Source: Raillietiella orientalis
Lineage: Eukaryota
DNA length: 64,000 nucleotides
Assembly (NCBI GenBank): GCA_036172245.1
Contig: JAYWIR010000022.1
Span: 1,302,001-1,366,000, forward strand
Reading direction: 5' to 3'
This document shows, piece by piece, positions 19,142 through 51,003 of this stretch. The translations under genes were made by a program, and so were the position numbers. The stretch's first letter is position 1. The number at the start of each line of letters is the position of its first letter. The notes beneath the pieces are model-generated. The model saw nothing but the letters and a program-made list of their open reading frames with translations, searched no databases and was not told the origin of the DNA.

Positions 19142-21491
19142 ATGGCAAAAATGTGCACTGGAATCAATATGAAGTATCTCATTATGAAGTGCCACTTTTA
19201 TTTATTTTTTGCTGGTATGTCTATAATTCTCAATAGTAAATCTATCATGCAAGGCATGGCAAAAACTGCCTGCAAGTTTTCAGATTGGTCAAGTGATTTC
19301 TAATCTTATAACAGAAAGAATTATAACGTAAACTACTAGAAAAATTATTCACCGAAACTGCATTGTATAGGAGATTCACATTCTGTAATTTTTGATGTGA
19401 AATAAAATGTATCTAACTGAAGAAAATCATGCTGCACTTTTCAAAGAATTTTGTTTTAGGTTCCGCCCCACTATTTACCTTCTTAACATTGGTTGCAAAA
19501 CAATTGGGACTGAATGAAGTTGCAGTTGGCATTTTATTTGGAACACTACCCATACTTGGTCTTATAAATAAGATTGTGTTTGGACTTTTGGCAGATCATT
19601 TTAAAGCTCATAAGTTGATTTTTCTAGTAGCTGTGCTAATTACTGCTTTACTACAATATGCCATACCTTTTTTACCACCCCTACCATTTACTGCCAGGAA
19701 CAGTCTCCACTGTGAAAATGGAAAAGCATTTGCATCCTTTATTGATCCTCCTCGTTATTTAAATGCAGATTTAGAGTGTTATTTGCAATGTTTTATACCT
19801 AAAGCTTCTTCACCAGATGATTGTGACCACAATCCTTACACAGAACAAATGACATTCATTGTGCAACTGCAAAATATTTCCCAAGCAGACTGCCATAATG
19901 ATACTGCATTATTTTTGCTGGCTTTCAAGGAGAAATATCCAGTCAGTTCTAGTAACTGTTTTCCCATTCCAGAAAATAGCAACTTTACTATATGTCCCTT
20001 TGAGAATTTAAACTGCTCCTTCACTTGCCCAGGAAGCCATCAGAAGATTCCAACAGCAGAAAATGCTGTATTTGAAATATCTACGTATGCATCAATTGAG
20101 TTTTTGTTATTGGTGTGTACTTTTTCCTTATTCTGGATGGCCATGGCTGTTGCTGTCAGTCTTGGGGATACTTTATGCATGGAGTTTGTTAGTAAGTTTA
20201 CTGGATAAATATGTCAAGTTAATATGCATTTCAGGTGATTCCTCTTTATATGGGAAACAGCGCTTGTTTGGTACATTAGGCTGGGGAACTAGTTCTATGT
20301 TGATAGGCTATCTCATCAACAAATACAGTTTCACTGCATGTCAGACAAATTACCTTCCAGCAGCTCTTTTGGGTGGCTCACTGCTTCTTGCTGACTTTAT
20401 CCTGTGTTGTGCGTATCTAAAGGTAATTATCATTACACTTAATGCAAGTCAATTTTCTCTAGATTCCAGAATTCAAAAGATCATCACATTCAATACAAAG
20501 TATGAGTCAGTTATTGTGTCAGGTGCCAGTCTTGACCATGTTTTTCCTCATTGTTGTTGTGGGAATAGGAACAAGTCTTATATGGCAATTTCTGTTCTGG
20601 TAAAAATAGTAAGTGTAGATGGAAAATCTAATGACTTTGCAGGTATGTTGATCACTTGACAGAAGCATGGAAAAGTAATTGGCAGAAACTTCTAGAAGGA
20701 CTTATAGTGGGAATACAGTGCATACTTGGAGAATTACCCTTTTTCTTCTTAGCAGGTATGTGAATTCCAACAAACAGGTGCAAATTTGATTCAAAAAGAA
20801 CAACATGATTTTTTTCTAAATCTCATGTTCCTTCAGGAAAATTTATCAAAATGCTTGGGCATCAAATGTGCATGACCTTAGTGCTCTTTGCTCTTGGAAT
20901 CCGATTTCTTTTGTATTCTGTGATATATAATCCATGGGTTGTACTTCCTGTTGAGATTTTACATGGTGTGTGTTTTGGTCTCTTCTATGCTACCATGGTA
21001 TCATTTTCCCACCATATTGCTACTGAAGGAAGTGCAGCCACAGTGCAGGGAATCAGTGGTGGACTATTTGAAGGTTTAGGTAAAAAAAACTCCTTTTTGT
21101 AGCTTTTGAGATTGAACTTTTATATCTCAAGGTGTGGCTGCTGGCAGCATGATTGCAGGAACTATGTTCAAAACACATGGAGACAGAGTCACTTTTTTCT
21201 GGTTTGGTGTTGCATTCCTTTTACTTGTATGCCTTCATTTATTGATACAATTAGCAAGAAGTCGTGTTTTCAAGCAAGGTAATTTTGATAGAAACATTGG
21301 CTTGCATGCAAAATATTGATAAAGGTTCAATTTTTTTAAAATATTAGTATCAAATTCCATGTTAAAGTAATACTTACCATACTAATATTTTTTAATTCCC
21401 AGAAAGAATACGCTCACTTTTCGTAGGATGGTTCAAGACAAGCCAAACTGGTAGTGATTCAACATTCGCGTGTATCCCTGAAGAAAAATGA
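19142..21491 (+). CDS. MFSD6-like major facilitator superfamily transporter, paralogue A. Exons 19142-19214, 19460-20191, 20235-20422, 20463-20599, 20643-20755, 20837-21079, 21132-21278, 21403-21491 (or an unspliced end at 21319)
   Basis: MKCHFYLFFAG-SAPLFTFLTLVAKQLGL, YGKQRLFGTLGWG, WQFLFWY, GELPFFFLAG and YNPWVVLPVEILHGVCFGLFY...ATVQG are MFSD6 / MFS_1_like motifs. It has a Cys-rich loop and frame-consistent introns. Confidence 0.92.
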
Positions 21492-22218
21492 TTTCTTCAA
21501 AGCAATAATTCTTTGTGTTTTAATTTCTCATTTGTTTTAATTTTAAGTCCCATTTAAAAAAAATACACTATTTAGTATTATTTTTTTGTGTGAACTATTG
21601 GTATTGTTTTCACATGGCACTATTGAGACAACAGTTTTACAAACCGAGAAAACTATTAAAAAGAATTATCTCGTAACAGTTGCAAGCGCATTATACAACG
21701 CTGCAAAAATGACATGCTGACACACCTACATCGGCTATTATTCAGGAATTCTTTAATGACTTGCTGCGATATTCCATTAATAATGGTGACGAAAAATCAT
21801 TAACATCAAGTCATTGATGCGAATACCTGAAATTGAAACTATTTGAATTTGATTAGGACCCGTACATACAATGTTGCGAGCTTCACACAGTGAACCTCGA
21901 ATTCAAGAACCTCCCATTGTGACCAGGAGAAGGACTATCAAAAATAAGAACAAACGCGTTAAACGAAAACTAATTAAAAGGCTTTTAATGCATGTTTCGT
22001 TAAACATGTCCTAAAAAACGACCTCGATGATATTCTTCTCCACTTATTAATTTTTCGTTTGCAGTCCCCTAGGTTCACGGGCGCACTCGGGGATTATCGT
22101 AGTGTGTGTGAACACTATGAAGGTCCACCTGGGGCTGATGAAGCCAACCTACTCGGATAAATTCATGATGTCTTGCTTAAGTTCTACGGCAAGTGTGCAA
22201 CCTAGTGATGAGGTAGCT

Positions 22219-22255
22219 CTACACTTTGATCTTAGCCAAAAGGCCGAGAAGTGAT
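22219..22255 (-). pseudogene. U2: U2 snRNA 5' fragment (nt 1-37), copy 1
   Basis: The reverse complement reads ATCACTTCTCGGCCTTTTGGCTAAGATCAAAGTGTAG, the U2 5' end with one mismatch at nt 4. No further U2 sequence (Sm site, 3' stems) follows. Confidence 0.93.
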
Positions 22256-22264
22256 GAGGTAGCT

Positions 22265-22301
22265 CTACACTTTGATCTTAGCCAAAAGGCCGAGAAGTGA
22301 T
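22265..22301 (-). pseudogene. U2: U2 snRNA 5' fragment (nt 1-37), copy 2
   Basis: Identical to copy 1, offset by 46 bp. Confidence 0.93.
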
Positions 22302-24875
22302 GAGGTAGCTCTACGTTTCCACTCGGAGCTTCTTGCGGTAGTACTGAAGTTCCCCATATTTATTTATGTCTTCATTCTCCGCTCCTAAGTTTCGTCTGTA
22401 GTCAGGCATCTTTTTTTTAAGGAAAGTTTTGTTTAAATGTGGTTCGGCAATTGGAGATGAAGACGAGCTTTTTAGGGGAGTTTGAATGTACACGCTGCAA
22501 ACGGTATATTATTATACACCATGAAGCTACAACTACTGGTAATGGAATAAGCAGGTTTTTTGCATTTTAATTACTGTAACATTACAAGATGCTCGAAGTT
22601 TTGATCTATAAAGCAACTGATATTTCACTAAAACATCTTTTCACTATTGATACCTAGCTCACAAACTTATGAGCTATGAGTGCTTATTTGCGTGCTGAAT
22701 CCAATCATTATCTTTATTTATTCACCATCTGCTATATATCCATTTGCGACACCTGAATACAAGATGCATTGCTATTTCAGTTTCGAGGAAAAAAGGGTTG
22801 CACACGAACTAGAACCTAATTATGGACTTTTTATTCACTTTTTCTTTAAACTTACCCGAAAAAGTGAATTCACTTTCGCATGTTTTTCGTACAGCCAGGC
22901 ACTATTTCCAGCTCATAATTATATCACGAATGCATGATTATATAAGTGACGATTTCATGTCACTTAATGATATTGTTCTGTATGTTGGTAGGAAGCCATA
23001 TTTTTTTGAATGTACGTAGGAAGTCTCAAAGTTATTTCTTAGTACTTTCTTTGGTATTGAAAACCGGAGGTACAATTAGGCAAGCTGTTTTCGTTTGTTT
23101 GAAATCAAGGTATAGAGCGGAATAGAGATCAGTATGCATTCAACAAAAGTACTTTAATAATTTTATAATTTTATGAATCATGAAATAATTTTCAACGATT
23201 TAATGCAATATGCGGTGGTCCTCATTATACACGATTCAGTTTCATACGTATTGCGTTCTGGAGTTGGCATTGGTACTCCTTTCGTTTCCTTTGATAGCAC
23301 TTAACATCCTGTTGATTATGATGTAAGCACTAACAAAATTCCTATGTCTGATTCTTTGAATTAATTTGGAACCTCTCATAGCAGAAGATTGTGTGCATTT
23401 TTCCCTCAAAATTCAATCAACAATGTGGTTGTTTGTCAGTATTCCACCTAGTGTCAGTGAATAAGTTTACTAATAAAAACGGGAAGATTAAAAAAAACAT
23501 ATTAGAAGAGGGGATTCCTAACATGATAGTAAAGGCGAGTTATGACCTTTAATTTGATCAATGGCTTGAATACAACTTTGTACCATGAGATCCACAATCT
23601 TCCTCGCAAGAGCGAAACACAAAGTATATCATCTTTGAAGTTTCCTTCCCCAGCAGGTCGCGCAGCGATGTGCTGACTAAAAGAAGCTTAAGGCCTCGAG
23701 AGAAATAATATTCGAGTGTGAGTGAAGTGAACTTGCTCACGTGTTGTATAAGAGTGCTTGTGGTTTGGTCATGTAGAAATACTTTCTAGTAGCAATCTCT
23801 TGAGACGAAAGCGGCTCATCCAGTCCACAGGGTTAGATGAGGCCAACGAAAAAGTTCATGTAGATCGAACGCAAAATGCTAAGAGCGGCAATGCACAACT
23901 TCTCACACAGTGAAGCACAACAGCAATACCCAGTTGAAACGGATTCCAGGACGAATCAAAGATTGAAAGCAATAGAAGAGACAGAAAGCAATAGAAAATA
24001 ATATAGAATATTGAGAGCAAGGGCATGGAAAACACTTCTGATTCCTCCTATTCTCATAACTAGTTTGCGATCTAAACATTCTAAGTTGAACACCCTAGAC
24101 TCGCACTTTAGTACATAATATGTTAGTTTAGTCCACCATAACGTTCACAAAGTCACAGCCGAATCCAAATCACAAGGCAAGCCATGAAAAATTCAGTGGC
24201 TTGCTTTCCCTTCTGTGCTACCAGATTTTAGGTGACACGACTCCGGTTTAACAAAACGAGGCATCGTAAGGGCATAGCACAACTTTACCGGCTGCATGGT
24301 GCCCTATGACAAGCATTACCCCGTTCCTTCATTCGTTAAGGTGGTAACATGAACCTTGTGGAGCCACCACGGAAATTGGCCCCCTGGAAGACATGCAAGT
24401 GCTTCATCTCGAGAGACCTTACAAGGATAGCGAGAAGAGCCAAGACTCTAGTTCTTTTTACGTCTCCGGGAGTGAGATCCTGGTCAGCCAATTATCCAAA
24501 GCATGTCCCGCAGGGCGAGATGCCTAATTTGGAAGCTCGATGCTGGGATCGTGGACACTTTTCCTACCAGAGAACCAGCAAACGGTTCCGTGCTTGTCCT
24601 CTCTAGACCACAAAGAGACAGTGGTGAACTGGAATGTAAGTCATGGTGCTGGTGACGATGACAACGATAGTGACAATCATGACATCTCTGTTTCCTAGCT
24701 AGATTAGTAAAGGGAGGAGAGGGTAACTTAGTGCGACCGCGTCGCTTCCCTGATTACTTCGGAGTCCAGATGTGCTCGTAGACTTGGAATTTGGCTCCAA
24801 TCGGGCGCACCTGATCCTGGAGAACCGCAGACTGCGTGTGTAGTATTGAAGTGATCCCCTACTCTCCCTTTTTAT

Positions 24876-27833
24876 TCATTCAACAGCACTAAGGGATTCC
24901 GGTCCGATTCCAGGACAAACGTCCTTCTTATCTTCTAGGGCAGAGCGATGAGATTGAGTCCTGCGGGCGCAGACTACCAGCAGCAGCTGAACAGCTCCTA
25001 GGGAGAACGCCGAGAAGATTATGAAGACACCGGCCCACCAGAAGGTGCGTTTTCCACCGAAGGTTCCATAGAGGACGCCAGCGACGATGCTGCCAACTCC
25101 GGTTCCTAGATCACCCAAGGGGAAGAGGAGAGTTGAAATCAACTCTGGAAGTACCTGTTAGAAGACGCTCTCACCCAGTGAGCCAAAGATCCCGTTGGCA
25201 ATAAACTGCATAGAAGCCGCTGCCCCTTCTGGGGAGATGTCATGGACATAGGATGTCAAGGAGGCAGCGAAGATCCCGAAGGCCGGTCCGTGGAGTAGCT
25301 CAATCGGAAGCAGCAGCCATGCGTTGTTCAGCCACGAGTAGGCTAAAAAGCGAAACCCCGAAGCCGCCAAGGAGACGAAGAAAGCTGCATGGTGGCCGAT
25401 GAGTCGTATGATGTGACCTAGGAGAGAGAAGGAGAGGAAAAGACAAGATGAATTGTCACCGAAGAGAATAAGACCACTCACCCGCTAGAAAAAAGCAAGG
25501 CATTTCTGCCAGGCACTCGATGGACAGCAGTAGTCCCTGGAGCAGTTTGATATGCGTCTGGTCCCCCCATTCGGAAGTCAGATCTTCTGCGTACCTTGAT
25601 AAAGGGAGTTGGTTGGATAGGAGAGCAGGAGCAGGCGCAGGGCCTCACCAAAACAAGAACTGCCACACGGCCCCCATTCCGGTGCCAGAGACGAAAAAGA
25701 TGATTAACGACGTCAGCACAGAGGGGGAGCGGAAGGTGGAGAGGACGTTGATAGCCAGTTTTTGGCTTTGGGGGAAACGGGGAATCTGCAACACGGAGGC
25801 GGCGCGCGTGCAGCACAGCACGTTGACGTGCTCTCTTTGCTCTCTTCCCTCCCACCCTCATACATGCCTGCCTTCCTCTTCTTTACCTTTATGAAAAAGA
25901 CCCACAGCAGTAGGTCAGCTGCAAGGAAGGCCGTAAGCAGCGAATAGGAAAGTAGATAACTCTTTATGGGGCAGCTGCCGTTGAGAATATCGAGGAGGCT
26001 ACCAGCCACAGGCACCATCACACCCCAACCCAGGGTACCCCACATCCTCTGCTTGCCGAAGTCGGACGGTCGGGCTTTGTGGAGCAAGGGATGGAGAAGA
26101 AGAAGAGGAAAATGAAGAGCATAAGACAGAGTCAGCAACATCCACCGCCCTTAACGTCACTCCCTCTCCCCTTTCTTCTCCCTTCTTACCGACCATATGG
26201 ACGCAAATGGTATCTGCAAGGGTGCTAACTACCGCTTCTGACACATTCCAGAGGCAGAGTATAGCGGCGAAGAGCCAGAAGCGAGACAGCAAGTGGACTG
26301 GAGGATTGGAGGGAGATGAGTCCTTGTCGTAGGGGCAGGTCACTTGGCACTGCAGCACCTTTGAGGAACATGGGAAAAAAGACTCAGGAGCTGGCAGACA
26401 GCACTCCTTGGGGGGGGCATTCAAACTGAGGTCCTCCACGGCCACCCACACGCTGTCTCCAAGTCCTCTGAGCGCTTCCACAAGATACGTGACCTCCTTG
26501 ACCTCCGTCATGTTCTGGCAGCCTGCGCTGCAGGTTGTTCTGGTAGTATTGTCGGGAGGGACCGAAGAGATAGGCAACTCGCACTGCATTTTGCAGAACG
26601 TGGCGGTCTCGCCTAGCAGAGGACAGTCCCTAGGCAGGGAAAAAGACCCGCCTCTGGCCGTGCATTGCAGCTGCACCTTTGCCGTGGGCAGAGGACCCAT
26701 CCTGGAGATGAGCAGGAGGAGGAACGGAAGCACGCCCGTGATGCTGATCGTCACCAGTAAAACCGCCTTGTGCAGCTGGAAGCGATCGATTAGCGGTCCC
26801 AGAAGAACCCTGGTCAGCAGCGCCAAAAAGGGGAAGCAGCCAAAAAGGATCCCTACGGTTACGTCTTGCACCCCCGCTTGTCGGGCAATGAGCGTCTGGA
26901 ACGGGTAAACGGGAGCGATTCCTGGAATAGAGGGAGTGATCTTCTGTCGAGAGATGGTATAGGGGAGTCTTTTCGGTGGCAGAGGAGGATGGTCTTAGCC
27001 TGCCTTCCTCAGAGACGGGAAAGAAAGGAGGAAGGAAAGAAGCGCTCAGGGCGTGTGGAAAGGATTGATTTTGTGACCCTCTCCGAGGTTGCGTGCATCC
27101 TTCGCGCTGCAAGTATCCCCTTCATCCCGCATTCCGCCTCAAGCCCTTTCGTAAGCATTTAGAGAAGAAAGGACGTGTTTTCGTGCCCCGAGACACTTTC
27201 AGATAGCAGCACAGACCGCCACGTACCATGGGGGTGGGAAGCGTGAAAGGAGGTTCCGGGGACAGAGGAGCGGAGGTAGTGCTTTTTCTTCCCTGAAGAC
27301 GGTCTGTTCCTCCTCTCTGCTCCGAAAAACGAACCCAGATTCCGGGTAATCCTTTTATTTTTCGAGACTCCAGATGCAGAATGTGACGTTCCGAACAGCA
27401 GCAGCTAGCAGGATTCTAAAAAAACGCCGCGGATCCCCACGAACGCGTTTTTTTTTCTTTTTTCTTTTGGAAACCTGTCTCGACTTCGCGAAGGGGGCAA
27501 TGAGTACGGTGCGGTGGTGGATGGAGTCGGGGTGGCGGAGAGAAGGAGGAGGAGCGTCTCGCTGGGGCGGATGACGTGCCGGTAGAGGCACGCTGCTGTT
27601 CGGAAACGTATCAGATACCAAAGTGCTGGGAGCGCGCTTCGCTATCGAGAGTCGCCAAGGAATGCTGCGAGAGATAGCGAAATAGCAACAAGGAAGCGAA
27701 GGAAGAGGAGGAAGGAAAGAAAAGCCAATTGGCGTGAAAATCCTTCGCTCTTACCTGCATAAAACACGAGGTAATGCAGTTTCATGGCGATCATGTTCTC
27801 AGGAGCACCGAGGGCCTTCATCACGGCCTTCAT
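24876..27833 (-). CDS. MFSD6-like MFS transporter, paralogue B (GC-rich). Exons 27833-27755, 26921-26190, 26074-25887, 25785-25649, 25594-25482, 25417-25175, 25105-24876
   Basis: MKLHYLVFYAG-IAPVYPFQTLIARQAGV, FGKQRMWGTLGWG, WQFLFWY, AEMPCFFLAG and NNAWLLLPIELLHGPAFGIF. All six introns match paralogue A in position and phase. Confidence 0.92.
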
Positions 27834-30800
27834 CCCGGTGAGCTGCTACTTCGGGTCTCGGTTTTCGCGTCTCTGGGAGCCTTCCGAACTCCGATACCTA
27901 TGATGAGTGCGCTCACTAATCTGAGATCCTTCAAGGTCGACCCAACACCACGACATCCTTTCCTCTTGTCTCTCTCACCCGCATTTCCGGGCATATCTTT
28001 CCTCTATTGTGAGATTCTTGGAGCTCTCTGAGAGCTTATATCTGAGAATTTCTCACATGCATTTCTCGCTTCTACCCTTTGCGTTCCCCGCGATGCCACC
28101 AGCAATTGGATCTTCTAGAAACGGTGAACAGGCTAACCATCCCGATCTGCATCCTAGACTCAATTTTCGGGTGCGAGCAGTCGAAAGATTTTTTTTCTGG
28201 ACTCTGGCGTCTTTGAGCAGCCTAGTAGGTGCTCTTCGACCCGACTAAAGAATAACAGAAACGCGAAGAGAGCTGGAAGTAGGGAGACCAATTGTGAGAA
28301 TTTTGGTTCCAATCAGAAGACCTGTGGAGAGGGAAAAGAAGTAGGAAAAATTCTGTGCGCTCCAGCAGCAAGAGAATTCCTATCCCGAGACAAGGAATCG
28401 AGAAGGGAAATGCCTTTATTGCAAAGAAAGACGCCATCCGTAGACCATGCCTGCATGTTTTTTCCCGAAATCTTACAAAATTTCTCGGATGATCAAGAGT
28501 TCATGGAGAGTTCAGATTGCGAGAGGTCAATAGCTTGTACTTGAGGGAGGAAGAACAGTGAACGATTTCAGGGACGCCAGTTTTGGACCATTCCCTAAAG
28601 AGTGGAACTTCCATATTCCCACTGCATTCAACCACTCCGTTCCAGATAGCAGATTGTTAATGTCCTGTGATGGTCCCTCCGACCAGGACTTGGACTACTG
28701 CCTAAGAACATATATTTTCTCGTCTCCTAGAACAAGCACCCAAGAAAGCACTGACTTTGGGAAATGTTGTTCAACAAGTGGGGACAGAGGGAAGGAAGAT
28801 GGAGACCATGGAAACGGATCTTTTCCATTGCGGCCCTTCAAGGTATCTTATTCAGGGATTCCCAAGTTTACTGGAGACAGCATTTCACTCTGCCTAGAAG
28901 TATAGTTTTATACAAACAATAGCTTGAAAATGGAGAAGAAAAAGTTTCCTCTTTTACCATCATTTGCAGATTCTTCCTGAAGCCTTTTCTAGGGTGGCTT
29001 TATTTTCCCAGGGATATTTCGGATACCAAAACCTAAAGATATAAGAGATAGAGATAAAAATAAACGCTTGCAGAATACAAAATCCTCTTTGGAATTCAGC
29101 TGCAGAAGCACAGAATAACTACTAATCTACAAGATGAGCAGTCTTTTAGAATCAGGATGCACAGCTGACACTATCGATATGAAAGCTAACCCTCCTGTAA
29201 AAAGTCCGACAACAAGTACTTAGCAGGATAATGAACAGGAATGTGTTATATTCTACGACTAACTAAAATCCAGAGATTTTATTTCCTGTTTATGCTGCTC
29301 TATGAGTCAATGCTACTTTTGCCATTGCGAATGCCTTTTCAAGAGGTGACCAGGGGTGACCAGAGTGCAAGTCTTTAAAAGCGCGACTTGATAGCCACTG
29401 ATAAAGGCTCTCATCAGAACAGACATCATTAGTTGCCTCTCTCGATTCATTTGGATGTTCTAACGTCCTGATGAAACCATGCTTATCATTTTGCATCATG
29501 GTCTATGCCACCATGATGAAAACATTATGTGAATGTTGATAAATCGAACGGAAGAATGACTTCACGAGCACATGCTCCCTATTCGACATAAAGGGGAATT
29601 CTCGATCTCAAGATACAAGCAACAACAAAGTACGACGATATACAAATGTAAGCAGATTGATTTTCTATGCAGACAAAAAGTAACCGAAACTGCCTAACTA
29701 CTCTGTAGTGTTTTTTTTTTAGATTGTATGCCATGATGAATCACACGATGGATGTGTGTTGTTTTATGAGTTCTAAAGTTGTTTTGCATAGTGTCTGAAT
29801 TCATGACTTTTCCCGCATGCTAAAATATACTTAGTTCTCGTAAACGGAATGATGATTCACGATCCATTAAGTAGACTGGATTGTATTCATCACTGCTACT
29901 GGTGGAACATTAGATAGATAGATAGCTTCCTCCATGTTCAAGATTAGGTTCACTACGATAGAAAATTGAAAACGACTTCATTCAAATTTTAGAAATTTAA
30001 GCTGAAATGAAATTCCACAAAGACAGTTAAGGACGAAACGTCAAACCATTTCCTACGCTTCCACAAATCCACCATCCTGCTTCATTCTCTAAGAAGCACA
30101 AAAATCTTTTCTACTCCCACTTATGCTTTTATGAATCTAGGCTCTGAGAAGAACCACCAATATCAATTTCCAGATAGTATAGAAATTTTGACTACATTCC
30201 TAAAATTCTCATAGGAATTCCTGAATTCTCGAAATTCCATTGAAGTTCTTGAATTCTCATGGTACTGATGAGAAAGAATAAAAAAATCACACTAATAAAG
30301 GTATGGGAGAGATGCCTGGTCAATGAGTTTTCAAGATGAGGGAAACAAGAGAAGCACTGTCGAAAGCAGCAACAGTTTTGGTCTTCGGTTGTGATTGAAT
30401 TCACTTTCAGTAAACGAATTGAACAGTTTTCGATATTTATCTAATTATTATCTAAGGTCAGTAAATATTGATAATTTGATATCGACTTGGTAGAAGGTAC
30501 TGGCTGTTCTTATAGATCCGCGAAGTCAGGATATCAGTGTTAAAACAGCACATCTGGAAACAGAAGAAACTGACTTCTGATAAGTCACATAACTTATAAG
30601 GGAAGGCAATCTCTCAAAGATTGGTTTGCATGCCTTTATCCGCGTATCCGATATCAGATGTTCCCATGAGGATATCTGAAAACATAGCCTTCCTTTAAAC
30701 TCCGTGAAATGCCTTCATTTTAATCAGACTTCATTTTTCGGACTCTTAAACCGTTTGTCAAAATTCCATTTTTGTCAGTTTACAAAACTTGAGCATTTCT

Positions 30801-32479
30801 CATTGCTTGCGTTAGCAAATTATACAGTTCGGTTATATTTGTCAAACTATTTGTCACACTATTACACAGATTTTCTCTTATTCCATTTTGAAATGCAATG
30901 ATATTTTATCATTCCGCTCAAGTAATTATCAGTCAGAGTAATTTGTGGTCGTAAGGTGTATTCAAAAGTATGCTTTCTACATTTTCGTTTTTCACTGCTG
31001 CTTGCGTTGTATTCGAAATTTCCAGCAACTTTATTGATTTCCTTTTGAAAGCATTGCAAGCATTTCCTTCCATGATTAATCATAAAAAAAGACTAGTTCA
31101 TTTCATGAGCATATGGCTGATAGGACACAAAAATGTTTATGAACTTCTGGAACGAACACATCCATGGGAAGTAGTCTGAACAGCATTCTTCGTTATGGAA
31201 ATCTAAAAACTTTATCAACCAAACTATTCAATCAGCAATTTAATTGAGGAAGTTCTTTATAGGTGCATTAGAACGATTCAATTACATATATAAAAAAATC
31301 ATTGCTCCGCAGTCTGGTCTACTTAACGATTTCAATAGTCAGTGCATATTAACAATATGCTGAACCACAACACAGAAAATTCCAAATGTCTGATAAATTA
31401 CTAGCAAACTCTCGAATTTCGAATTTTAAAAGTATTTTATCCTCAAGCAAAAAGCCGTCTGGGAACATCAAATCATGTTAGGACGATTCGTCGAAATGTG
31501 AAAAACCTCTTTCTGGACAACGAAAACGAGAAAATTTTGCAAAGGAATCTTCCGACAGTTTTCACGTTCTGCGCTGTAGGGCGATGTTTTCGAGCTTGTC
31601 GCCATAAAAGTTTTGACATGAAACTCATTTTCCCCTTGTCGTTACTGCCAAGATGCACTCATTTTAAAATAGAATCTAAGAAAATACTTTTAAACCTTGT
31701 CATATGAAGTTGGTTTGCAACACACGTTTTCTTTACTTTGTGCAATCTCAGCATGTACCTTGGCAGTAATCAGCTGCCAAAGGCCAAGTTTGCCAAAATC
31801 AACTCATCAAATTAATTAATGTATCTATGAACCATGATCTCAAAACAATAGTATAAATTTCGTAATAATGTAATTCCTAATAATATGAGTCATGTGACAA
31901 CAACTTTTGTCGTAACATAACTTCCGTAAGTTCAAAAAGAATATATCCCAGAATCCTGTATTCAGAGATATGGAAAACAGTCTTCCATTTGTTTAACATT
32001 TACATTCTTTCAAACTCAGAAAAGTTCCGAGTTCTCAAGAAATTTGAATATTGCATTTGCAGCCTACCAGTTTCAAACTGAGTTTTTGGAACATGGACTC
32101 TTCACCACCTTTAACGAACCATGAAGGGAAAGACGTTTCAGTACGTAGCAGAAAAGCATGATGATGCGAATGCATGTCCTTATGGACCAACAAATGAGCC
32201 TCACCTGATACTAACCATGCTGTTGTTCTTCAAGGACTGTCTTGTTGTTTATATTTGCAGAGTGGGTCAAGTTTTTTCAGTATCTAGTAATCTTGCTAAT
32301 TCAGTTTCTCCATCTCCACCGTTTCAAAGTCGTGAAATCCCCAGCACCTATCTTAGATAAGCCCCAATGGATTTTAAAATAATCGAAAGAAGTATAATCA
32401 GCATAAGGCATTTTCATTGGATGCAAATTGTCACTTTCCAGGCTCATTATTTTGTTGTAAAATTAACGGCCTAAGTAGA

Positions 32480-33060
32480 AAATGTGCCGCTTCCACGTTA
32501 TCTTGATGTTCTTACGTGTACGGCTTTCGAATCCATTTTTCAACCTCTTCCATTTCATTTTTCCTACTATCGAATTTGTGAACCCATAGCCAGAAAACCA
32601 GGTGGTCGCTCTTAAGGGTGCCACCGGAGGTCATTCGAAGATTTTCGAGGAAAATGACACAAACGGCGTCGTCGTTGTCGTCGCAGATGTCCCATGGTCT
32701 CCTTTTCCCAGACCCTCTGCCGCAGACACGGAGGGTCCTCCGAAAATTGCGAAGTACTCATTGTGAATCACCGGAGGAACGCCAGGATGCCACAGGATTT
32801 TTTTTTGTCGAAAATTTCGAATCTGATCAAAAGGACAAGAGCAGAAAGTGAACTTAAACGTATTCACTTCGGGTGAGCTGTGCGTTGAACATACTCAAGC
32901 ATGTGATTTTAAGATTTCTAACGTTTTCAAAGAAATTCAAGGTTCCTTCTCGTGATTGAGATGTTTGTCGTAAATACGAATAACTATTTGGAAATCATCC
33001 AGAGATTACTGTGCGAAAAGTGAATCCGGACTTACTGTTACGTGAAATGCAGTATTATAT
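32480..33060 (+). promoter_or_regulatory. CpG-rich putative promoter and non-coding first exon of fem-1 (candidate donor GG|GTGAG at ~32874)
   Basis: CpG cluster directly upstream of a CpG-poor gene body, with a consensus splice donor about 200 nt before the ATG. Confidence 0.5.
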
Positions 33061-33078: not shown

Positions 33079-35661
<2,583 letters not shown>

Positions 35662-35701
35662 ATAGTTAGCAAACTGCTAGTGTTGCTGTCATGGTGCTGT
35701 T

Positions 35702-35707
35702 AATAAA
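35702..35707 (+). terminator. AATAAA polyadenylation signal of fem-1 (putative)
   Basis: Canonical hexamer 40 nt after the stop codon. Confidence 0.6.
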
Positions 35708-35852
35708 CTTGTAGTGCTAAGGTGTACAAGTGGAGGGTGCATGCAAATTGTATAAGGGTGGCAACAGTAGTCAGTGTTGGTCTTGTCAGAATAGTTTTTC
35801 CGTTTTAGAAGTGAAAAAATGCTTTTGAGTTTGTAATCCTAACTGGTGGCTA

Positions 35853-36994
35853 ATGATGGAGCAATTATGTGCGCAATTAAATGATGCAGGAGTAAATGAT
35901 ATGAAAATTCGCCATCGCCTTCAACAATATAAAGCCAAATGCAGTCTTTCCAAACAGCAGACTAGGCGCTGCTCTATTCTTGCTATTCAAAAAAAGTAAG
36001 AGGGTCATGGGAATTATTATGAATCACAAATTTGAAAATATTTAGTAATCGGCAGGCTACAGTAGATTTGCTTCGACACCTTGAATGTTTGGATGAAGAT
36101 GAGCAACAACCGATGGATGTTACTACCATAGTTTGTACCACAGTTTGCATTTTGTCTTAGTTTCAAATTTTGCAGCGTCATAATCCATTTAAGAACCTGT
36201 TGATGCTTTCTGAATGGATGATAGATGTACCTCCAAATTTTTCAACTGATTGGCAAATGGTTCTCTGCCCATCAGGAAAAAGGTGCTTGATTGTGGCCTC
36301 AAAGGTTGGTACTGTGGAGTTTCAGCAATTTTGTTGATGTTGATCATTAGGGAGCAACTCGTGCATATAACAGAAAAGGTTTTCATTTGCAAACATTTGC
36401 TTCCCATCTGCCTGGAGGCAGCAGGCGTCAGAAAAAACGCCAAGTGGTTACCATGTTGGACTGTATAAGGGATGTAAAATCTAACACGTATTTCATATTG
36501 GATGTCTTGTTCTGGGCTAACATCTGTTTTTTGGATGGTGAAGTATGTTAAAGAATACTTAGATTCTTGATGATTTTTTTTGCTAGAGAAATCTTCGATT
36601 TTTCTGGATCCAGTCCAAGATACTGGAATATCCTGAACTGGAACAATGTAATTCCATACAAAGTTGCCATTTTAAGTTAGTTCCTGCTTTTTCTTGTGAT
36701 CCACATTCTATACAGACTGCATTAGAAAATGATTTACCTTTTGGTGTGCCATTGGATGGAATACTTTTTTATCACATTGCTGCCCACTATTATCATGGCT
36801 TGACTCCTTTAGTGGGTTGGCTCAAAGCATATATGATACCAGAAATTCTTGGTGTGGATATTCCTTCCAAATATATTCAAGCACGCCCAGCAAAATATGT
36901 CTCCTTAAAGCAATATTTGGAACATGTGTCAGCTATTAGATCAAATCAGGAACATCATGACACCCAGGAGGATAAAATGCAAATTGCTTCTTAA
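35853..36994 (+). CDS. SNUPN: Snurportin-1 (m3G-cap snRNP import adaptor). Exons ~35853-35995, 36046-36130, 36176-36303, 36351-36542, 36587-36994
   Basis: MEQLCAQL...HRLQQYKAK...QQTRR (IBB-like; cf. MEELSQAL..PRLSQYKSK), LMLSEWMIDVP..W..VLCPSGKRCLIVASKG, LPGG, YFILDVLFW, and DGILFYH..HYYHGLTPLVGWLKAYMIPEILGV. Confidence 0.95.
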
Positions 36995-38299
36995 ATCCTC
37001 AAGAACATGAGTTAAACATAATTTAAAACACTCATTTAGCTTCATGGTGAGCTTTTATCTAAGATCAAGGATTAAGTTACTGGCAGAAATACTACATTTG
37101 TTTAAGTTGCTTAACAGTAAGCAGTTTTTAAAAGCTGCATTAAATTGTGTGCATGCAGGCAATAAAAATAACAAGTGATCAATGTACTTCATGTATGCTC
37201 AGTTGTAAACAGACATTTGGCTGGTAACCTTTAAACATGTTTTTTGGCTTCAGATTTCCTTCAAAATGTGTGATATCAGCCTATGAATACATGTGTTGTG
37301 ACTGCAATTTCAGTCTCTTGTTAGATGCCATATAAACATTTTGAGAGAGAAATTCATTACAGGTCTGGAATATATGTAGTGAAACTTGCCATTCTACATT
37401 TCATAGTTCAGTGTTGGAATCAAGCATTGTTAAGGTTTTCGTTAGCATTTCAAGTTGTAAGTCATATCATATACTTCACAAAGCAAAAAGGGTATTAGGT
37501 CAAAGTGCTTTGTGCAGTTGATTGGTTGTAAAGCATTAAAGCAAAGGTTTTCCACAGTGAAGTCATTAAAATAAAAGCATTCGTGAAATTCCGGAGTGCT
37601 TCTACTAAGACAGCTTCCATATGCCTTTGCAAGTTATCACATGAAAGCTTTGGGATTAAATAAGCGACAGCATATGCGATTAGTAAGTACCCATTTTCCT
37701 GGTCTCTGAAAATTCCTTTTTGTAATGCATAGTTGATTATGAATCACAAGCTTTCATGTTCGGATTTTTGTGATGTCGATCTCTTTGAGAATTAAGAATG
37801 TGATTTACGGGTTTTCAGCATGCTTTGTTCATAAATAATTCATAAGTTTCAAAACTGAATTCTCATTCAGTGGCATTCTCATCCATAGTCACTCGTGTTT
37901 TGCATTGTCGGTTTTAATCACTTGTGTTGTATTAACCTACTGAGTTAGCTGATCGCTGTCCTGCCATGTGTGTTTCAAAGTTTCCAAACCAAACAGCAAA
38001 AACTCTAGGGAGGCAGAATACGAGTTGTATTTTTGTTTTGTTTTTAATGACTAGTGCGTAGTTTTGTTTGATTTGTGCATGGTGGTGGTTGGTATTTTTA
38101 GATTGCGTTTTTGCATTCAACGATTATTAGAGCAATGGAGATGTGTATGATGTAGTTATTCCTGTAATCGGTGTAATCAAGAGAAAAAGAACGAAGAAGG
38201 GAAATATTGGAAGGGAAGACTTTTCACACTGGTGTTCAATCAGCGTTTCTTCCTCTGCTCTTTTCGCAAAAAATGAGGCAGTTCTCGGTGGACTAGCGA

Positions 38300-39560: not shown

Positions 39561-42500
39561 CCGTCCTGCCCCATGATTTTGGTATCAGAAGCTGGAATAA
39601 GTGATGTGAAGACGTCGGTGCGAGTACGTTGTCACCATCATACGTGGATTTCCTTGCAGATTTCGAAAAGAGCGACTGTGCACTTCAAGGCGTGAACTTC
39701 GAATCGGATGCCTCCATTAGTGTTCTTCATTTTACTGATTCTTCTGAAAATGAGAGCTCTAAAGCGATCCACATTCTAGAACTTTCGGAGAGGAGTTCGC
39801 TCTCGCGGTGGTTTCAACCGTTTTGAATTTACTGCGGCTGTATTGGAGAACAAACTGTTCTGTTACGGTTTGCATTTCGAAAAAACTGTCTCACGTCGAA
39901 CTGAGGACTCTGTCTCGGAGTGAGTCGCACATGGAAGTGCTTGAAGGAAGCTCAGCTGATACCAATGTCAGCAACGGTTGTAGGAAAGAGTAAGCGTTAG
40001 ATATGACAGAGCATTCCTCTCTTTTGGCACATCTATCCACGTAGTTTACTCGTCATTCTTGAAGTGTTCCGTTATGTGTGTGCATCGAGGGCATTGAGAG
40101 ATGTCCACATGTGGTTCGGGAGAGTAGCAAGCCCAAGAGCTTTCATTAGGTAGTTCCAACAAAACTGTTCGTGTTCGTTGCAGGTTCTGCCGAATTCTGC
40201 AAAAGGCCCGGAGGGGACTCAGAGATTGCTAAATTATTATTACCGAGTGCCACTGTTCCTGTTGGAAGTAATCGTTATCGGATCGGTTCCCTGTTACTGA
40301 GAGTTGCTGCTGACATTATTGTTGATAAGCGGTATCGAGGGCTGAATTATTGTTTAATTAATGAAGGACATTAACGAGCACAAAGTCAAAACACGAAGGT
40401 GAATGCAAAAGGGGTGATGCGTCCAGCATCCTTGCTTCCCCGTGATCGTTCCCTATATTTCCCAAGCCAGGGTATCGAGAGAAAGCAGGCGCGGCGCACT
40501 CCAATACTTCGATCTGGTTGCAATCGGAAGGTGGGCGGGGCGCGACCGGCGAAGACTGCTAGAGCTGAGGAAGTGTCTCCTTGCTTGCGAAGTGGGTTGG
40601 ATGTCTGAGGCTGCACATGGGAGGAGGACCGAAAACTCTCGTGGTCTGCAAAGGGAAAGGGCTGCGCTCACGTTCGACTCGGTGGGTTGCCGGGAACGCT
40701 CTCAGTGAAGCATGAAGAATCCTCGAGGAGGAATCCCTACGGCCACGCTGACCTGCAGGCAGCAGGTCAATCGGCTGGGCGATTGCCTGCGTACGCCTGC
40801 TTGAAATCCCGAGATGCGGGGGTTCTCTTCCGAGGGGACCCTCCTGCTCGTTCTTTGGAGCTCCTGATGTATGCTGCTCTCCCGGTCGAGAAAAGGAGCA
40901 GACGCTGAAACGCTACCTTGCTCTTTCGGTTGCCTGGAACCACCTGACTGGAGGCTTCCTCCCCCTTGATTTCTCTTCTCCTGGGTGCTCTCTACGAGTT
41001 CAGATGCCCCCTTCCGACAGCCCAAAGGACCCGGGCTAGAAGCACTGGCGCTTCATTCCTTGGCTCTCGGAGGCGTTCCTTCTTGTTGGGCCAGCAAGTA
41101 GGGCAAGTTTACACTTGTCCCGGGCTCCTCCCCCCTTCCCAAGTAACTCTTGTGTGAGACGCATCCCGGGGATTATGAATTTGCAGGAATCTGCTCCCGT
41201 GTATTCGGTACCTTTGATGTCCGCTGGTGGCGGTGCTTGGGCGGAAAGGGACTCTCCCAAGCCGCCCACATACTCTGCTTCCCGCAGCGGAGGGCGCTAC
41301 TCCGCTCCGGCCTCCTCCATCCTTCCAGGCCGGCGTCTTCGACGATTCCGGATGTTACCTCTGTGACAGCAGTACGAGCGCGAGCATCCAGACTGCTGCC
41401 AGCTCCTGGGAGGCTCCTGGAACGGGAAGAGGAGTGACGTGCGCTGCCTCGCAGATGTCCTGGGGGACACATGCACGGACGGGTGAGGAAGACCTCGGGG
41501 AAAGAGCGGGTCCCTTCTTTGGGCACGCGGAACCTGGCGGGATACGCCTGCGAGCAGGGGAGGCGGGGGCTATCCGCGGCCGTCGGTTGCGCGCTCAAGT
41601 CTGGAAAGACCGGAAGTTTCGAGCGGCCGGAAGCACCATCGCGCAAGCTCTTCGGAGGAAACCTGGAAACCCCAGAACTAGGGGAGGAGGAAGGAGGAGG
41701 GTCGGAGGTCGACCTGGAGCTGGATGCGGTCCGAGCTACGAGCTCGCAACCCCTAGGTACTTCTTCCCGAAGATCGGAAAAGCCTTCTGAGAAGGAGACC
41801 CTGGAGGAGGTTGCTCTTTTTCAACTGCTCATCCGTCTTTCTCTACTCCCCAATCCGTTCCACTTCCTTTTCGGAAACATCTCTTTGGGGATGGGCGGGG
41901 AACGGAGGCAAGTGGGAAATCATCCCCACTTCTCGATCGGGCCCCCCTTCTCCAGTTCGCACTGCTTGGAAGCTCGAGGAGGGTCCGAGCCCCTCAGATG
42001 TGGGGCAACCATCCGCCGTACTTGCGTCTCGCGCAAACCACGTTGAGGGTGACAGCGACGGCGGCTTTCCCTCTCCCCGACCGAAAGGAGGAATGGGAAT
42101 CAGCTCAATTCCCGGGAAACTGCCGCCTTCAGTTTCCTTCTTGGAGTTGGGACGTGCGATGCGTGTCGTTCAGGCTCCAGGAGCGGGAAGAATCCCGGCG
42201 CGAGAGAACTTTGCGCACTGGCTCGCTCATCCGTTCCGACCGGTTCCATGTAGATTGAGGGAAGGGACATCTCTCCAGCGTGGGGATGCCGTTGCACCTA
42301 ACTCAACGGTCGTTTCCACAGTTAGTGGATGATGGCATCCGCCGGAAACCTCACGTGTGCCGGGTGGAGTCCCCATCTGGGAAGGATTGCTCGAGAAGAG
42401 GAAAAGCGCAAATGGGCAGTGGAGACGCACACGCTCGGTCACTTCTGATTCTTCTTTCGGTTACTTTTCCTTGGGTTTCCCAGGGACCCACCCGCGGTAA

Positions 42501-45500
42501 AAAAGGGACACAAGTGTCCGCATCCGGATCCTTTTTTGGATGTTTCCTTTTCGCGAAGTGTCCTGTAGGAAAGCAAACGATAACAAACGCGAAAGCTTAG
42601 CGTAAAGTTATGAATCGTAATACTGTGGTATGTAATCATAATGTGATAACGATGGAAACGAGAACAATCACAGTAAGGTACCCAGTGAATATTCCTCCAA
42701 TAATGTGCAGCTGAAATACACTTTGACCCGACTTTTTGACGTTTCTTCCCGAGTACTTGTGGCACCGCGCGAACGCGAGGTGGTCCACTCACGTGATAAA
42801 CTGACAAAATGGCACCTCACAGGGGTGCACGCGAAAACCGATTCACTACAATGTAGTCACAACAGATCGTACTGATAATCAAGACGATGTAACATTCTTC
42901 TGGATGCACGAATGCCTTTATATTCTGGGCACTTCTCTCGTCGTAATTTCTCACCGATAAAAGACCACAGATACTTTCGTAAGTCATTCGAATGGGGGGG
43001 AATGTTTGGAAGGAGACGCAAATCCGTCATTTCTGAACTAAGCTGTTGAGATAACCGAGCAGGTTGCGCTAGACGTAACACTCGCTCTTGGGAAGAGCAA
43101 TCTGGCTTATTTTTCAAACAGTAAACTGGTCTTTGAAAACGAATGCAAAACATGCTATCTCCTCAGGCTCAATGAACCCTTGTATATGAATAATCACATT
43201 CTTATGTGCCTTCGTTTTGTTCCCAAAATCATAAATCGTACATACACATACTGGTGAAACAAAACTCATCATTTTTAGGCTTTCAATTCCTCTTAAAATC
43301 ACTTTGTTGTATTGCCTTCAAGACTCATGGGCTTCCGTGGCTGAGATCCCCATGAAGGCGATCCGTAGAACATCCATCATGTTCATACGGAGGAGTAGCA
43401 TACGGAGATCGTAAATTATATTTCCCGATTGTTTATAGAAATTGGATAGAATAATAATAAAGTCCAGAGAAGATATCTACAGCAATGAATCCCATTAAAA
43501 TGTAAAGAGATGTTTCCAAGATAGTAAATTCTGTAGATAGATAGTTTTTTTGTAAGACTATACCGCGGTGGTATGCTTCGAAACTTTAACACTCCTTGTA
43601 GATGCCACAGTTCCCTCTCTGGATGCTCCAAATATATTGTTCAGTTCACTTTGAAAGATGGGCTGCCTGCCGCGATTTTTCAGGCCAATAAACGTTTCTG
43701 ACCAAATACACAGGAAGCAAGGAAAACAAGGCATCAAAACAATAACACCCGGGCAATGGAAACACAGTTGTCTTTCTGAATCCACGACTACCTTTCAAGA
43801 TTGAATGAAGGGAAGATTTACAGAGCTTTGAAGTTGTGCGAGAGCAAAATTCACTTTCTCTTTTCCACGATTAGTTTATTTTTTCTTCATTGTCTGTCTA
43901 TAATTAAGAAGGTTTTTCAATTCCCAAGCTTGAATGTCTTCAGCTCTTCTTTTTCATTTTAGGAATATGAATTCATAAAACTAGACGGGCATCATTTGTA
44001 CATACTTCGACTACGGAAAACCCTATTATCTAAGACCATTCAGTATTTTGGATGCAAATACTAAAACATGCTTCACGGAGGCTTCATAGAGATTAGGGGA
44101 GTGCTTCATTGTGCAGAGTGATAAAAAAACTACTCCTGAGTTAACGATTTCATATATGGATGTGTGGACATACATACATATATATGTATATGGAATAGAA
44201 ATATACCAAGTCATCATTTCACATTCTGCTAACATAATTTTATCCTGTACTACCTACAACTCCTAGTACCAGCGTAATTATGGAAACATATGCGTGCATG
44301 CCAAATGAAAGACAAAAACGAAAAATTCTATATTCCCATGCTAGAAGTGTAATATTGGTAATAAGAATATGGATTACTGTTAGAAGCATATTATTATAGA
44401 GAAGTAACACTTCTTCCTCCTAGTATCAGGAGATATACCAGTCTGGTGATTTTTGTTGAATGCAAGATGATACTGTGAAATATGAGAAAAACTTTTCCTG
44501 GAGAAATTATACTCTTCGCTCAATTCGTTGCTTATATTTTGAAAGGTTAGCAGAAGCAGTTTGTGGTAAGCGTGCGTTCAGAGTCAGGAAAATGGGAAGC
44601 CTAACCAGCTTAGTTGCTTTCCAAAGAAAACGGCTGAGAATGAAAAGAGAAAAAACAGAAAGACATCATTTTTTTTTTTTTACTCCAAATCCCTTAAAGG
44701 TTACGGGTGCTTTTTGAGGGGAAAAAAACATGAACCACCTAGAAAACAAGAATAGCTCAAGAGAGGGAGAACAAAAAGTGATTCATGAAATGAACCAATG
44801 GCGAGAACACGAGTTCAGAAGACAAAAAATTGAGGAAGAGACTTTAGTAACACTGGGTTTCATTCTTGCACGAAATTGCTGAGGAAGAAATAATACGACG
44901 ATTTAATCAATGACAAGCAAGCACACATCAACTCAGTGCACTTTCCATATGGCATATTCTTTGAGATGGCTTCTGGTTCCATTAACTGCATTTATCTTTG
45001 CTAAGGTGGAATTTATAGATAAAGCATTCATATTACCGTTTATTGAACCACCATTCTTGGAAAAATTAAAATGCCTGCAGTTAATATCTAATAATAATAA
45101 TGTATGTTTTAAAGTGCAAAAGTTAATAGAGAACGCACATAGCGTCTACTTTTAAGATGACGATGCAATCTTATCAGAAGTTTCAACATATGCGAAAAAC
45201 AGCGCTATTTGGGGGCCGAGCTGCTCATTCCACTTTATCTGGATCTCATGACAAAGTTACTAGAGTTGCTTGGATTAAATAGCATATTCTTGTTTCTTAT
45301 TCATCTTCCAATGGCAGAAAAAATGAAATTTTAAGCATACGAGGAGACGTGAAAGAGTCAGACAAAGAAGGATAAATAGAATCTTCCGATTTTAGGGTGA
45401 GAAAGAAAAGGATCGGAAGACGAAAATGCTGCCTTAGAAACAATAAACAAACAAAAAAAAAGCTTAAATAAACGATTGGTTCTAAATTATTTGAATACTC

Positions 45501-48799: not shown

Positions 48800-49099
48800 G
48801 TGACAGACGCGAGTACTGCTGTTGGTATTCTGCTCGGATTTTTAATTTGCTTTTCACCTGTAGAACTGGATGGAGAGTTTGGCACATTTTGATTTATTCC
48901 TCGTTTTTTTTTCCTCCTCCCCTCTACTCAGTCGATCTTGCAGAGTTTCAGCAAAGGACTTGAAGTTTCGGTCCAGCAGTGTAAGAAATTAGCTCCAAGG
49001 CAGTCCGTGATTTCAATCAGTGGGCTAATTTGTGCATGCGTGTGTCTGCATGTAGGAATTGCTCATCATACCTAATAAGAAAACTGAGCTTAATAGCGC

Positions 49100-50030
49100 T
49101 AATATCTGTCGGAACGTTCGCGTGGTGGCCAAGGGAAACGTGAGAGATTGCATTCTACCTCAGAACTGGTTTCGGATCATATAACTCTGCATATGCGGCC
49201 ATGAGCTCTCTTCTCACCATACCAGTTTAAAAAAAATAACATTGGCTTCACGCTGTATTTATCCATAAGTCGTGTGTTTGTCGCACTAGTTCCTGGATGC
49301 ACTTTATGGGCAGCCCGCGTCGTGGGCCTAATACTGTTCCACGTCACTCGACAGTGCATGTAATTCTTCAAGATTGGGGGTACCCCGGGAGGGGTCCGCC
49401 CTATGAATCCAGGAAGGACTCGGAGTCCGTTCCTCTAACTCCTGGGGGGGGATCCCCGGAAATGGAGATCACCTCCACCCTGGTTGTCTACGAAGGGGAA
49501 TCCAGAAGGAAATCCTCCTTCCTTATTTTCTCCGGATGGCAACCCGGGGGGTCCGCTCCATTCTTTCTTTTCTGAAGGGAACCCGGAAAGGATCCGATCC
49601 TGGGATTTCTTCTCGGAGGGATCCCCCGCAAGGGATCCGCTCCTGTTTACTCCTCTGAAGAGAACCCAGAAGGGACGCTTCCGAACTTCAGAAGGGCGCT
49701 GCTTCCCCTAAGGGCGTGGCTCGCTTCCCTGCACTCTCTGGAGAGATGGTGGCGACACAGCTACTCCATCAGTACGACGCAGAGGGTCCCCCGGAATAGG
49801 AGTCCGCTCCTTCACAACTGGAAGGGAAGAACTCTCACTCCTTGATTGCTGGAAGGATCCGAAGGTCGACTCCCATTGCCCTGCCCCTCATTGGAGACAT
49901 CCTGTTTGAACCGCCACCAGTGCCTCACCCAAATGAATGTAGGCCAGCCAGCGTCATCTTGCAGGAGCAACTCGAACCCACGACGCACTCGGAGTCGATT
50001 GGTTTCGTAGTATAGGAACCCCACGACGCT
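49100..50030 (+). mobile_element. Decayed non-LTR RT remnant, homologous to 63170-63830
   Basis: RTGFGSYNSAYAA (QxGFR..ST..A), YLSISRVF (FLDISKAF), TVPRH..VILQDWGYPG, EGSPARDPLLF (QGSPLSPLLF), and a decayed ALYADD at ~49731. Clear nucleotide similarity to the copy at 63.2-63.8 kb. Confidence 0.65.
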
Positions 50031-50329
50031 TAGTTCCACGCGCGGACACCGCAGGAGTCACAGCGCCTCCGACGCGAAAAAAAGTAGCATTGAGGACAAC
50101 GGAACAGCCGCCACCCCACCCGCCACAGAACTCCCACTGTTGTGTAATCGGTCCCCAGATCATTCCTTCGAGTGAATCTCTCCTGCACGCCTCATTGTTG
50201 CTCATCAGCAAGAGATATTGCAGGCGGAATAACAGATCTTTTAGAGTTTCTTTGTTTTCTCCGTTTCTTCGCCTTCTTCATGGCGCGCATCAGACGCGCT
50301 TCGGAAGGAACATGAGAGCGGGCTATCTA

Positions 50330-50720
50330 ACTTGCGGCTCTCCAGCTTCACGTCCGAAAGTCTTCAGGCGTTCAAGGTCGAACAATGCTCAACAAGTACT
50401 TAACCGGATTGCATCGATAGTCTGCGTCTCATTAAGTAACGCCTGCTGCTCGTTATTGTGGAGAGCACCGACTGCCTCTTGCCATAATCACTGTTGTCTC
50501 TCCAAGAGCTCGATCTTTGAGACAGTCGAATCGAAGAAGAGAACGTTGCCTGCATATAAAGTGAAGAAGGTTTTCGAAACTTCAGCCTTGAGGTGAATTA
50601 GCGGAAGACATGGATGGAACGGCAAGCATTGTGAGATGTTGAAGAATTCCCAGTTCTGGGATCACGACACAATCCCGACTCCTTGGAATTTAATAACACT
50701 CGAAGAAACCAAACACGAAT
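50330..50720 (-). mobile_element. Decayed non-LTR RT remnant
   Basis: GV..CV..P..FFNI followed by TLYAGNVLFFDSTVSKIELLERQQ*LWQEAVG..LNETQT (cf. LYADD..LQxLL..W..GL..NxxKT). Confidence 0.5.
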
Positions 50721-50958
50721 TAAGAGGAAACGCCTTTTGCTACACTCATCCCAGGTAGAAGGCAAAAGTCAGGATGCACTTGATTTCTTTGAATCTGATC
50801 TTGCTTTTTAGAAACAAGTTGGAGTAACTCAGGATTGAGGTCATGCGTCAGTGTTGAGAATTTCCACAACTCTCCAGGTCGAAGATTTCGAATGCAGAAG
50901 GTCCTCGTCGTCGTGATACTGCTGTCAGAAAAAAACCGAATGAAGTGTCCATACCAGA

Positions 50959-50960
<2 letters not shown>

Positions 50961-50997
<37 letters not shown>

Positions 50998-51003
50998 TGT
51001 GTG
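50961..51003. repeat. (TG)n microsatellite with one interruption
   Basis: Read directly from the sequence. Confidence 0.97.

Follow-up and report, generated by a model that had tools for sequence, protein, structure and literature searches.

In C. elegans, the genes of SL2-type operons lie on one strand, and the intercistronic distance is about 100 bp (PMC7986045). A different arrangement is seen in Ciona and Oikopleura, whose operons use a single spliced leader (SL) and have an intercistronic region that is absent or very short: the median distance is 1 bp in Ciona and 31–33 bp in Oikopleura, with cut-offs of 60–84 bp (PMC7986045). Ciona combines gene-body methylation with such SL operons (PMC3827831, PMC4691747). 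Copepods, amphipods and rotifers possess spliced leaders, yet the available text of PMC7986045 gives operons as unreported in all three. The original prediction had pointed to SL trans-splicing in copepods and amphipods, in agreement with that source, and for copepods it is firmly shown in calanoids (PMC4664967).

Tight spacing also exists outside operons. Dimorphilus gyrociliatus has a compact annelid genome with short intergenic regions and introns and conventional promoters, described in the available text as having neither operons nor trans-splicing (PMC7854359). In Drosophila, snurportin itself (Snup, CG42303) lies in tight tandem with an unrelated gene, CG42304. Snurportin is there the upstream ORF and its partner a DNTTIP1 homologue; RT-PCR and 5'-RACE support separate start sites, and the linkage is given as restricted to drosophilids (PMC3771954).

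Here we describe a tandem pair in a window of 64 kb (the whole stretch of DNA that was analysed), which holds eukaryotic, spliced genes. A fem-1 gene is followed on the same strand by the gene for snurportin-1, with 191 nt from stop codon to ATG and 100 nt from an AATAAA to an acceptor-like AG. As in SL2-type operons of C. elegans, the genes share a strand, an AATAAA lies 100 nt before a strong acceptor, a consensus donor is missing, and the acceptor lies 45 nt before the ATG. Unlike those operons, the pair is known from DNA alone. C. elegans is not known to have the gene-body CpG depletion that this window shows. Set against the nematodes, moreover, the organism is not closely related to any sequenced one (best fem-1 identity 48%). 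Nor is the arrangement of the Ciona/Oikopleura type, as the intercistronic region spans some 80–100 nt: the AG lies 100 nt past the AATAAA and about 80 nt past the point where cleavage is presumed. In contrast to the Drosophila locus, snurportin is downstream, behind fem-1, and an AATAAA stands between the two; in contrast to Dimorphilus, the window is not uniformly compact, with spacers of up to several kb.

We found no description of a fem-1/snurportin unit in the literature. No snurportin relative stood beside fem-1 in any of 80 environmental (metagenome) fem-1 loci; 52 of these reach the fem-1 C-terminus and 13 of the 52 have at least 1.5 kb downstream, so that adjacency was seen in 0 of the 13 loci with enough flank to judge. 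Does snurportin-1 nevertheless share a transcript with fem-1, or does it have a start site of its own?

The fem-1 and snurportin-1 genes

The two genes and their outer flanks comprise the following features.

32250..33050 (+): CpG-normal region 5' of fem-1, CpG observed/expected (o/e) 1.0–1.25; putative promoter and non-coding leader
33079..35661 (+): fem-1 coding region, 644 aa, stop TAG at 35659–35661
33079–33144, 33430–33589, 33911–34111, 34154–35661 (+): the four fem-1 coding exons
35853..36994 (+): snurportin-1 coding region, 318 aa
35853–35995, 36046–36130, 36176–36304, 36351–36542, 36587–36994 (+): the five snurportin-1 exons
37161..37166 (+): first AATAAA past the snurportin stop, located in the sequence

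The fem-1 exon model was picked among 12 stop-free combinations by its match to the fem-1 alignment consensus, and has inferred introns of 285, 321 and 42 nt. Its product matches Ank families of Pfam and is an ankyrin-repeat protein with full-length kinship to fem-1 A/C. The large exon has 1542 relatives in a collection of 5.8 billion clusters, which does not include the window's own protein; the top one is 48% identical over 99% of the exon, and no relative in that collection exceeds 48%. In a quick tree the branch of this fem-1 measures 1.55, against a median of 0.19, and is placed beside Collembola with a weak support of 74. In the CpG-normal region upstream, a donor-like CGG/GTGAGC occurs at 32874/32875, and an acceptor-like site at 33051–2 has 5 of 12 pyrimidines. 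The fem-1 promoter, the leader exon and the 32874/32875 donor are all putative elements.

Snurportin-1 was recognised by an N-terminal IBB-like region together with an m3G-cap-binding domain. The Snurportin1 IBB domain (PF11538) scores below threshold (E 0.0045, 17.5 bits against a Pfam cut-off of 22.1), while SPN1_m3Gcap_bd (PF21974) matches two exons, with E values of 1.4e-13 and 3.3e-21. Exon 5 had three matches, all from caridean shrimp, at 41–47% identity; the relatives of snurportin are thinly sampled, the queries having been single exons and not the spliced protein. The ATG at 35853 is the start codon, because an in-frame stop lies directly 5' of it (ORF 35829–35999). Inferred introns measure 50, 45, 46 and 44 nt. 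Pfam domains and relatives thus bear out both gene identities that had been proposed earlier. Judged by its proteins, the source organism is a fast-evolving animal without a close relative in the databases, perhaps with an affinity to the arthropod side, as hinted at by the weak fem-1 placement and the shrimp-only snurportin matches.

Intron length across 33079–36994 is bimodal, with five of the seven inferred introns at 42–50 nt and the other two at 285 and 321 nt. The inferred donors of this region are degenerate (GTTTGT, GTTGGT, GTAACT).

Signals in the 191-nt gap

Between the two coding regions, and reaching into the first exons of snurportin, we distinguish these elements.

35662..35852 (+): intergenic gap, 191 nt, CpG o/e 0.16
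35702..35707 (+): AATAAA, presumed to be the poly(A) signal of fem-1 and located 41 nt past its stop
35741..35775 (+): promoter-like motifs, namely ATGCAAATTG at 35741–35750, TATAAG at 35751–35756 and TCAGT at 35771–35775
35795..35808 (+): acceptor-like tract TTTTTCCGTTTTAG, pyrimidines at 11 of 12 positions before the AG; candidate trans- or cis-splice acceptor
35801..36177 (no strand): local rise in CpG over snurportin exons 1–3, with 9 CpG and an o/e of about 0.7, the remainder of the block having 0.23
35819..35836 (+): upstream ATG opening a uORF of 5 codons in a frame other than that of snurportin

The layout of the junction proposed from the bare sequence was largely confirmed. The distance from the fem-1 stop (35659–35661) to the ATG at 35853 is 191 nt; the AATAAA at 35702–35707 is the single one in the gap; the AG at 35807–8 lies 100 nt after it and 45 nt before the ATG; one CpG occurs in the gap, at 35801; and GTAAG, GTGAG and GTRAGT are all absent from 35600–35900. 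The ~100 bp quoted for the C. elegans intercistronic distance likewise agrees with the literature. Within the window the gap is a local outlier, other spacers reaching several kb.

The AATAAA probably serves as the poly(A) signal of fem-1, and a G+T-rich stretch follows it (65% G+T in 35708–35806). AATAAA occurs 0.6–0.7 times per kb, but fem-1 requires some poly(A) signal regardless. From the presumed cleavage site of fem-1 it is only about 125 nt to the snurportin ATG. The acceptor stands out: an AG preceded by pyrimidines at 11 or more of 12 positions occurs 0.5–0.6 times per kb per strand, so that ~0.1 is expected in the gap, and the tract outscores all eight inferred cis acceptors of fem-1 and snurportin (4–10 of 12). 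The acceptor had been called unpaired. This holds for donors of the GTRAGT type, none of which is found in the gap, but is less certain in view of weak GT sites: those at 35750, 35758 and 35767 would give potential introns of 59, 51 and 42 nt to 35808, within or near the local class of 42–50 nt. There are three ATGs in the gap, and the one at 35819 is retained in any mRNA leader whose 5' end is at or before 35809.

The gap had also been described as devoid of a promoter signature. It does hold an octamer-like motif (ATGCAAAT at 35741) as well as TATA- and Inr-like motifs, 80–110 nt upstream of the snurportin ATG, yet these are not above chance. The usual spacing from TATA to Inr is about 30 nt; the 22 nt from TATA to the Inr A found here are shorter.

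ATGCAAATTG has four exact copies in the window (18279, 32421, 35741 and 36977), all on the + strand. Three stand before the MFS gene, fem-1 and snurportin, and the fourth where snurportin ends; upstream of the TFIIIA-like gene the motif occurs in a 9-mer version. The flanks of the copies are mutually unrelated. As a common promoter motif ATGCAAATTG was rejected, its recurrence being matched by 52% of 2000 random 191-nt AT-rich segments that were scored for a 10-mer with at least four copies in the window; the promoter-like motifs are thus no more than a lead.

No Rfam family, SL RNA included, reached the gathering score within the 64-kb window. At E≤1 the Rfam matches there were confined to a U2 fragment and a miRNA family, both weak, again without an SL RNA, and the published amphipod and copepod SL cores had no match in it, a result of little weight for so small a region.

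The U2 fragment, at 22208–22301 (−), is a 46-nt unit, repeated about twice in tandem, that holds the first ~36 nt of U2 snRNA. It scores 37.8 bits against the 46-bit Rfam cut-off for U2. The U2 sequence breaks off after GTGTAG, so that the 3' half is missing, as is an Sm site. The fragment is unlike the copepod and amphipod SLs in the available part of the published descriptions.

CpG mosaic of the window

Background CpG o/e is 0.82, as measured in 29 AT-rich 1-kb bins of the window. Against it stand three CpG-depleted blocks with an o/e of about 0.23 (0.12–0.39), located at 11–15 kb (FHIP and a TFIIIA-like gene), 19–21 kb (MFS) and 33–38 kb (fem-1 and snurportin). Two of the three blocks thus hold a tight tandem gene pair. 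Such a mosaic suggests that some of the genes have methylated bodies in the germline. A rule for reading it comes from Ciona, whose genome is the best studied of those with mosaic methylation: gene-body methylation drops at the ends of transcription units, and active promoters are unmethylated even inside methylated gene bodies, as far as the available text of PMC3827831 describes.

The original prediction saw CpG depletion running unbroken from 33.2 to 37.5 kb. At the 1-kb scale it does (o/e 0.22–0.37), stopping near 37.5 kb, but not at the 400-nt scale, where 35800–36199 reaches an o/e of 0.67, the top value of 23 sliding windows in the block. An interval of ~390 nt, 35790–36180, contains 9 CpG (o/e 0.71; P(≥9) = 0.003 at the depleted rate, for bounds picked post hoc after inspection of the data). 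Its CpG level is consistent with the background of 0.82 and inconsistent with the depleted value of 0.23. An independent start site would leave just such a stretch of normal CpG where its gene begins. The fem-1/snurportin gap, on the other hand, is CpG-poor, with one CpG (P(≤1) = 0.035 at the background rate), as is the FHIP/TFIIIA-like gap (2 CpG in 476 nt, P = 0.0003 against background). By the Ciona methylation rule, both tight gaps resemble the interior of a transcription unit. As evidence, the CpG-poor gap and the return of CpG at the start of snurportin roughly cancel out.

The FHIP to TFIIIA-like junction, 13294–13905, is the second tight pair of the window, with a tentative TFIIIA-like ATG at 13901. 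FHIP carries a RAI16-like domain at 11709–12219. The gap has an AATAAA at 13706, and its final 95 nt up to the start contain five ATGs. Five nt before the TFIIIA-like ATG lies an acceptor-like AG (pyrimidines 9 of 12). Given these ATGs and this AG, the leader must be very short or spliced. The C-terminal exon of FHIP, 12433–13290 (+), encodes 286 aa without a Pfam family, while the upstream exons match RAI16-like; a search among 1.84 billion representative proteins returned no relatives of the C-terminal exon.

Two MFS_1_like paralogues, at 19417–20659 (+) and 25713–26994 (−), are 31% identical and lie 5 kb apart. They differ strongly in composition, one being CpG-depleted at 33–37% GC and the other having 54–56% GC and an o/e of 0.6–0.7. 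A protein search with an MFS exon gave no matches. GC-rich blocks at 24000–28000, 40000–43000 and 49000–64000 (48–61% GC) alternate on the kb scale with DNA of 32–40% GC. These blocks contain long open frames on both strands, with a Pfam match only for the MFS paralogue at 25.7–27.0 kb; seven other frames in them matched no Pfam family.

Own start site or shared transcript

How is snurportin-1 expressed? We give a probability of roughly 0.45 to an ordinary, very tight head-to-tail pair, with snurportin transcribed from its own start site. The fem-1 mRNA would end about 20 nt past the AATAAA at 35702. Snurportin would be transcribed from a small start site within the final ~100 nt of the gap (about 35760–35850), with regulatory DNA overlapping the fem-1 3' end and without leader addition. 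The pyrimidine-AG tract would then have arisen by chance in a T-rich leader, or would act as an acceptor for occasional read-through transcripts only. This is the default arrangement in animals. Gene-body methylation, suggested here by a clear mosaic of CpG-depleted gene bodies, is absent from most operon-bearing lineages (Ciona is the exception), which speaks for an own start site and against an operon. The near-background CpG over the first ~390 nt of snurportin fits the unmethylated promoters that Ciona keeps within methylated gene bodies (PMC3827831). The octamer-, TATA- and Inr-like motifs upstream of the ATG point the same way, although they are non-significant and the TATA-to-Inr spacing is off. 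Dimorphilus shows that tight spacing exists without operons (PMC7854359), and Drosophila Snup/CG42304 has one start site per ORF (PMC3771954). The window lacks an SL RNA gene and an amphipod or copepod SL core, and the fem-1/snurportin adjacency was absent from all 80 environmental fem-1 loci, 13 of which have at least 1.5 kb downstream. Against an own start site stand the CpG-poor gap, since a housekeeping-type unmethylated promoter should show more CpG, the unusually strong acceptor exactly 100 nt past the AATAAA, the scant room between fem-1 cleavage and the ATG, and the second tight pair, FHIP/TFIIIA-like, with its likewise CpG-poor gap.

Several of these same features would be accounted for by an SL-resolved operon of the C. 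elegans type, which we regard as a tentative possibility. One precursor, transcribed from the fem-1 promoter, would span both genes; the AATAAA would set the fem-1 3' end, and trans-splicing would join to 35809 a spliced leader donated by a separate SL RNA, giving snurportin its cap. Fast evolution and very short introns often go with SL trans-splicing, and this lineage is fast-evolving, with introns of 42–50 nt. The acceptor is stronger than any inferred cis acceptor of either gene, the gap is without a consensus donor and much shorter than other spacers of the window, which reach several kb, and it is CpG-poor like the gene body, within a single depleted block over both genes; the FHIP/TFIIIA-like pair has the same CpG continuity. 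The 100 nt from AATAAA to AG equal the ~100-bp intercistronic distance of C. elegans (PMC7986045). Yet a spliced leader in this organism is hypothetical, with no SL RNA gene within the 64-kb window, itself a small sample. A return of CpG where snurportin begins would be unexpected in the middle of a transcription unit, the ATG at 35819 would fall inside the trans-spliced leader, and if the organism is an arthropod, operons are unreported there in the available text of PMC7986045. Doubtful is the fuller proposal of an SL operon with a nematode-like region of ~100 nt in a fast-evolving, gene-body-methylated and possibly arthropod-related lineage, with FHIP/TFIIIA-like as a second case. The acceptor, the scarcity of CpG in the gap and the one depleted block over both genes would also fit a shared promoter with cis-splicing. 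Read-through RNA from the fem-1 promoter would then join the non-coding leader exon of fem-1, through its donor at 32874/5, or a different donor of that gene, to 35808 and skip the fem-1 coding exons, as at loci with a common 5' exon. That such a route is used here is unlikely. It has a good donor in CGG/GTGAGC and needs no spliced leader, but loci with a shared 5' exon are rare, an intron of ~2.9 kb would be required against 42–321 nt for the seven inferred introns, the canonical AATAAA must be bypassed, the renewed CpG at the start of snurportin speaks against it, and the fem-1 leader exon is itself putative. Reinitiation after an upstream frame as long as 644 codons is unlikely. This, together with the three ATGs in the gap, makes very improbable an unprocessed dicistronic mRNA on which translation of snurportin would depend on reinitiation or internal entry, a mode put forward for some gene pairs of Drosophila. 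At the sequence level, too, the canonical AATAAA between the frames sets the pair apart from such an mRNA. The short gap would suit it, and Drosophila snurportin is annotated within a dicistronic gene, though not together with fem-1; even that locus, however, has one start site per ORF (PMC3771954). Hybrids or other readings take up the remaining probability. An own start site for snurportin is at least as likely as the operon, and DNA alone cannot decide whether a transcript is shared.

The junction is real, and an operon is a reasonable hypothesis for it that the DNA does not favour over an ordinary tight tandem pair. All mechanisms considered are of known kinds. If snurportin has its own start site, fem-1 and snurportin form a plain tight tandem pair, and the locus cautions that an AATAAA with an acceptor ~100 nt further on can arise without an operon. 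If snurportin lacks its own promoter, the lineage would join the few animal groups with polycistronic transcription, and the CpG mosaic would provide a DNA-only way to delimit transcription units. Should the SL operon hold true, it would represent an independent origin of operons in a lineage where they have never been reported, and would open the question of how gene-body methylation treats polycistronic units.
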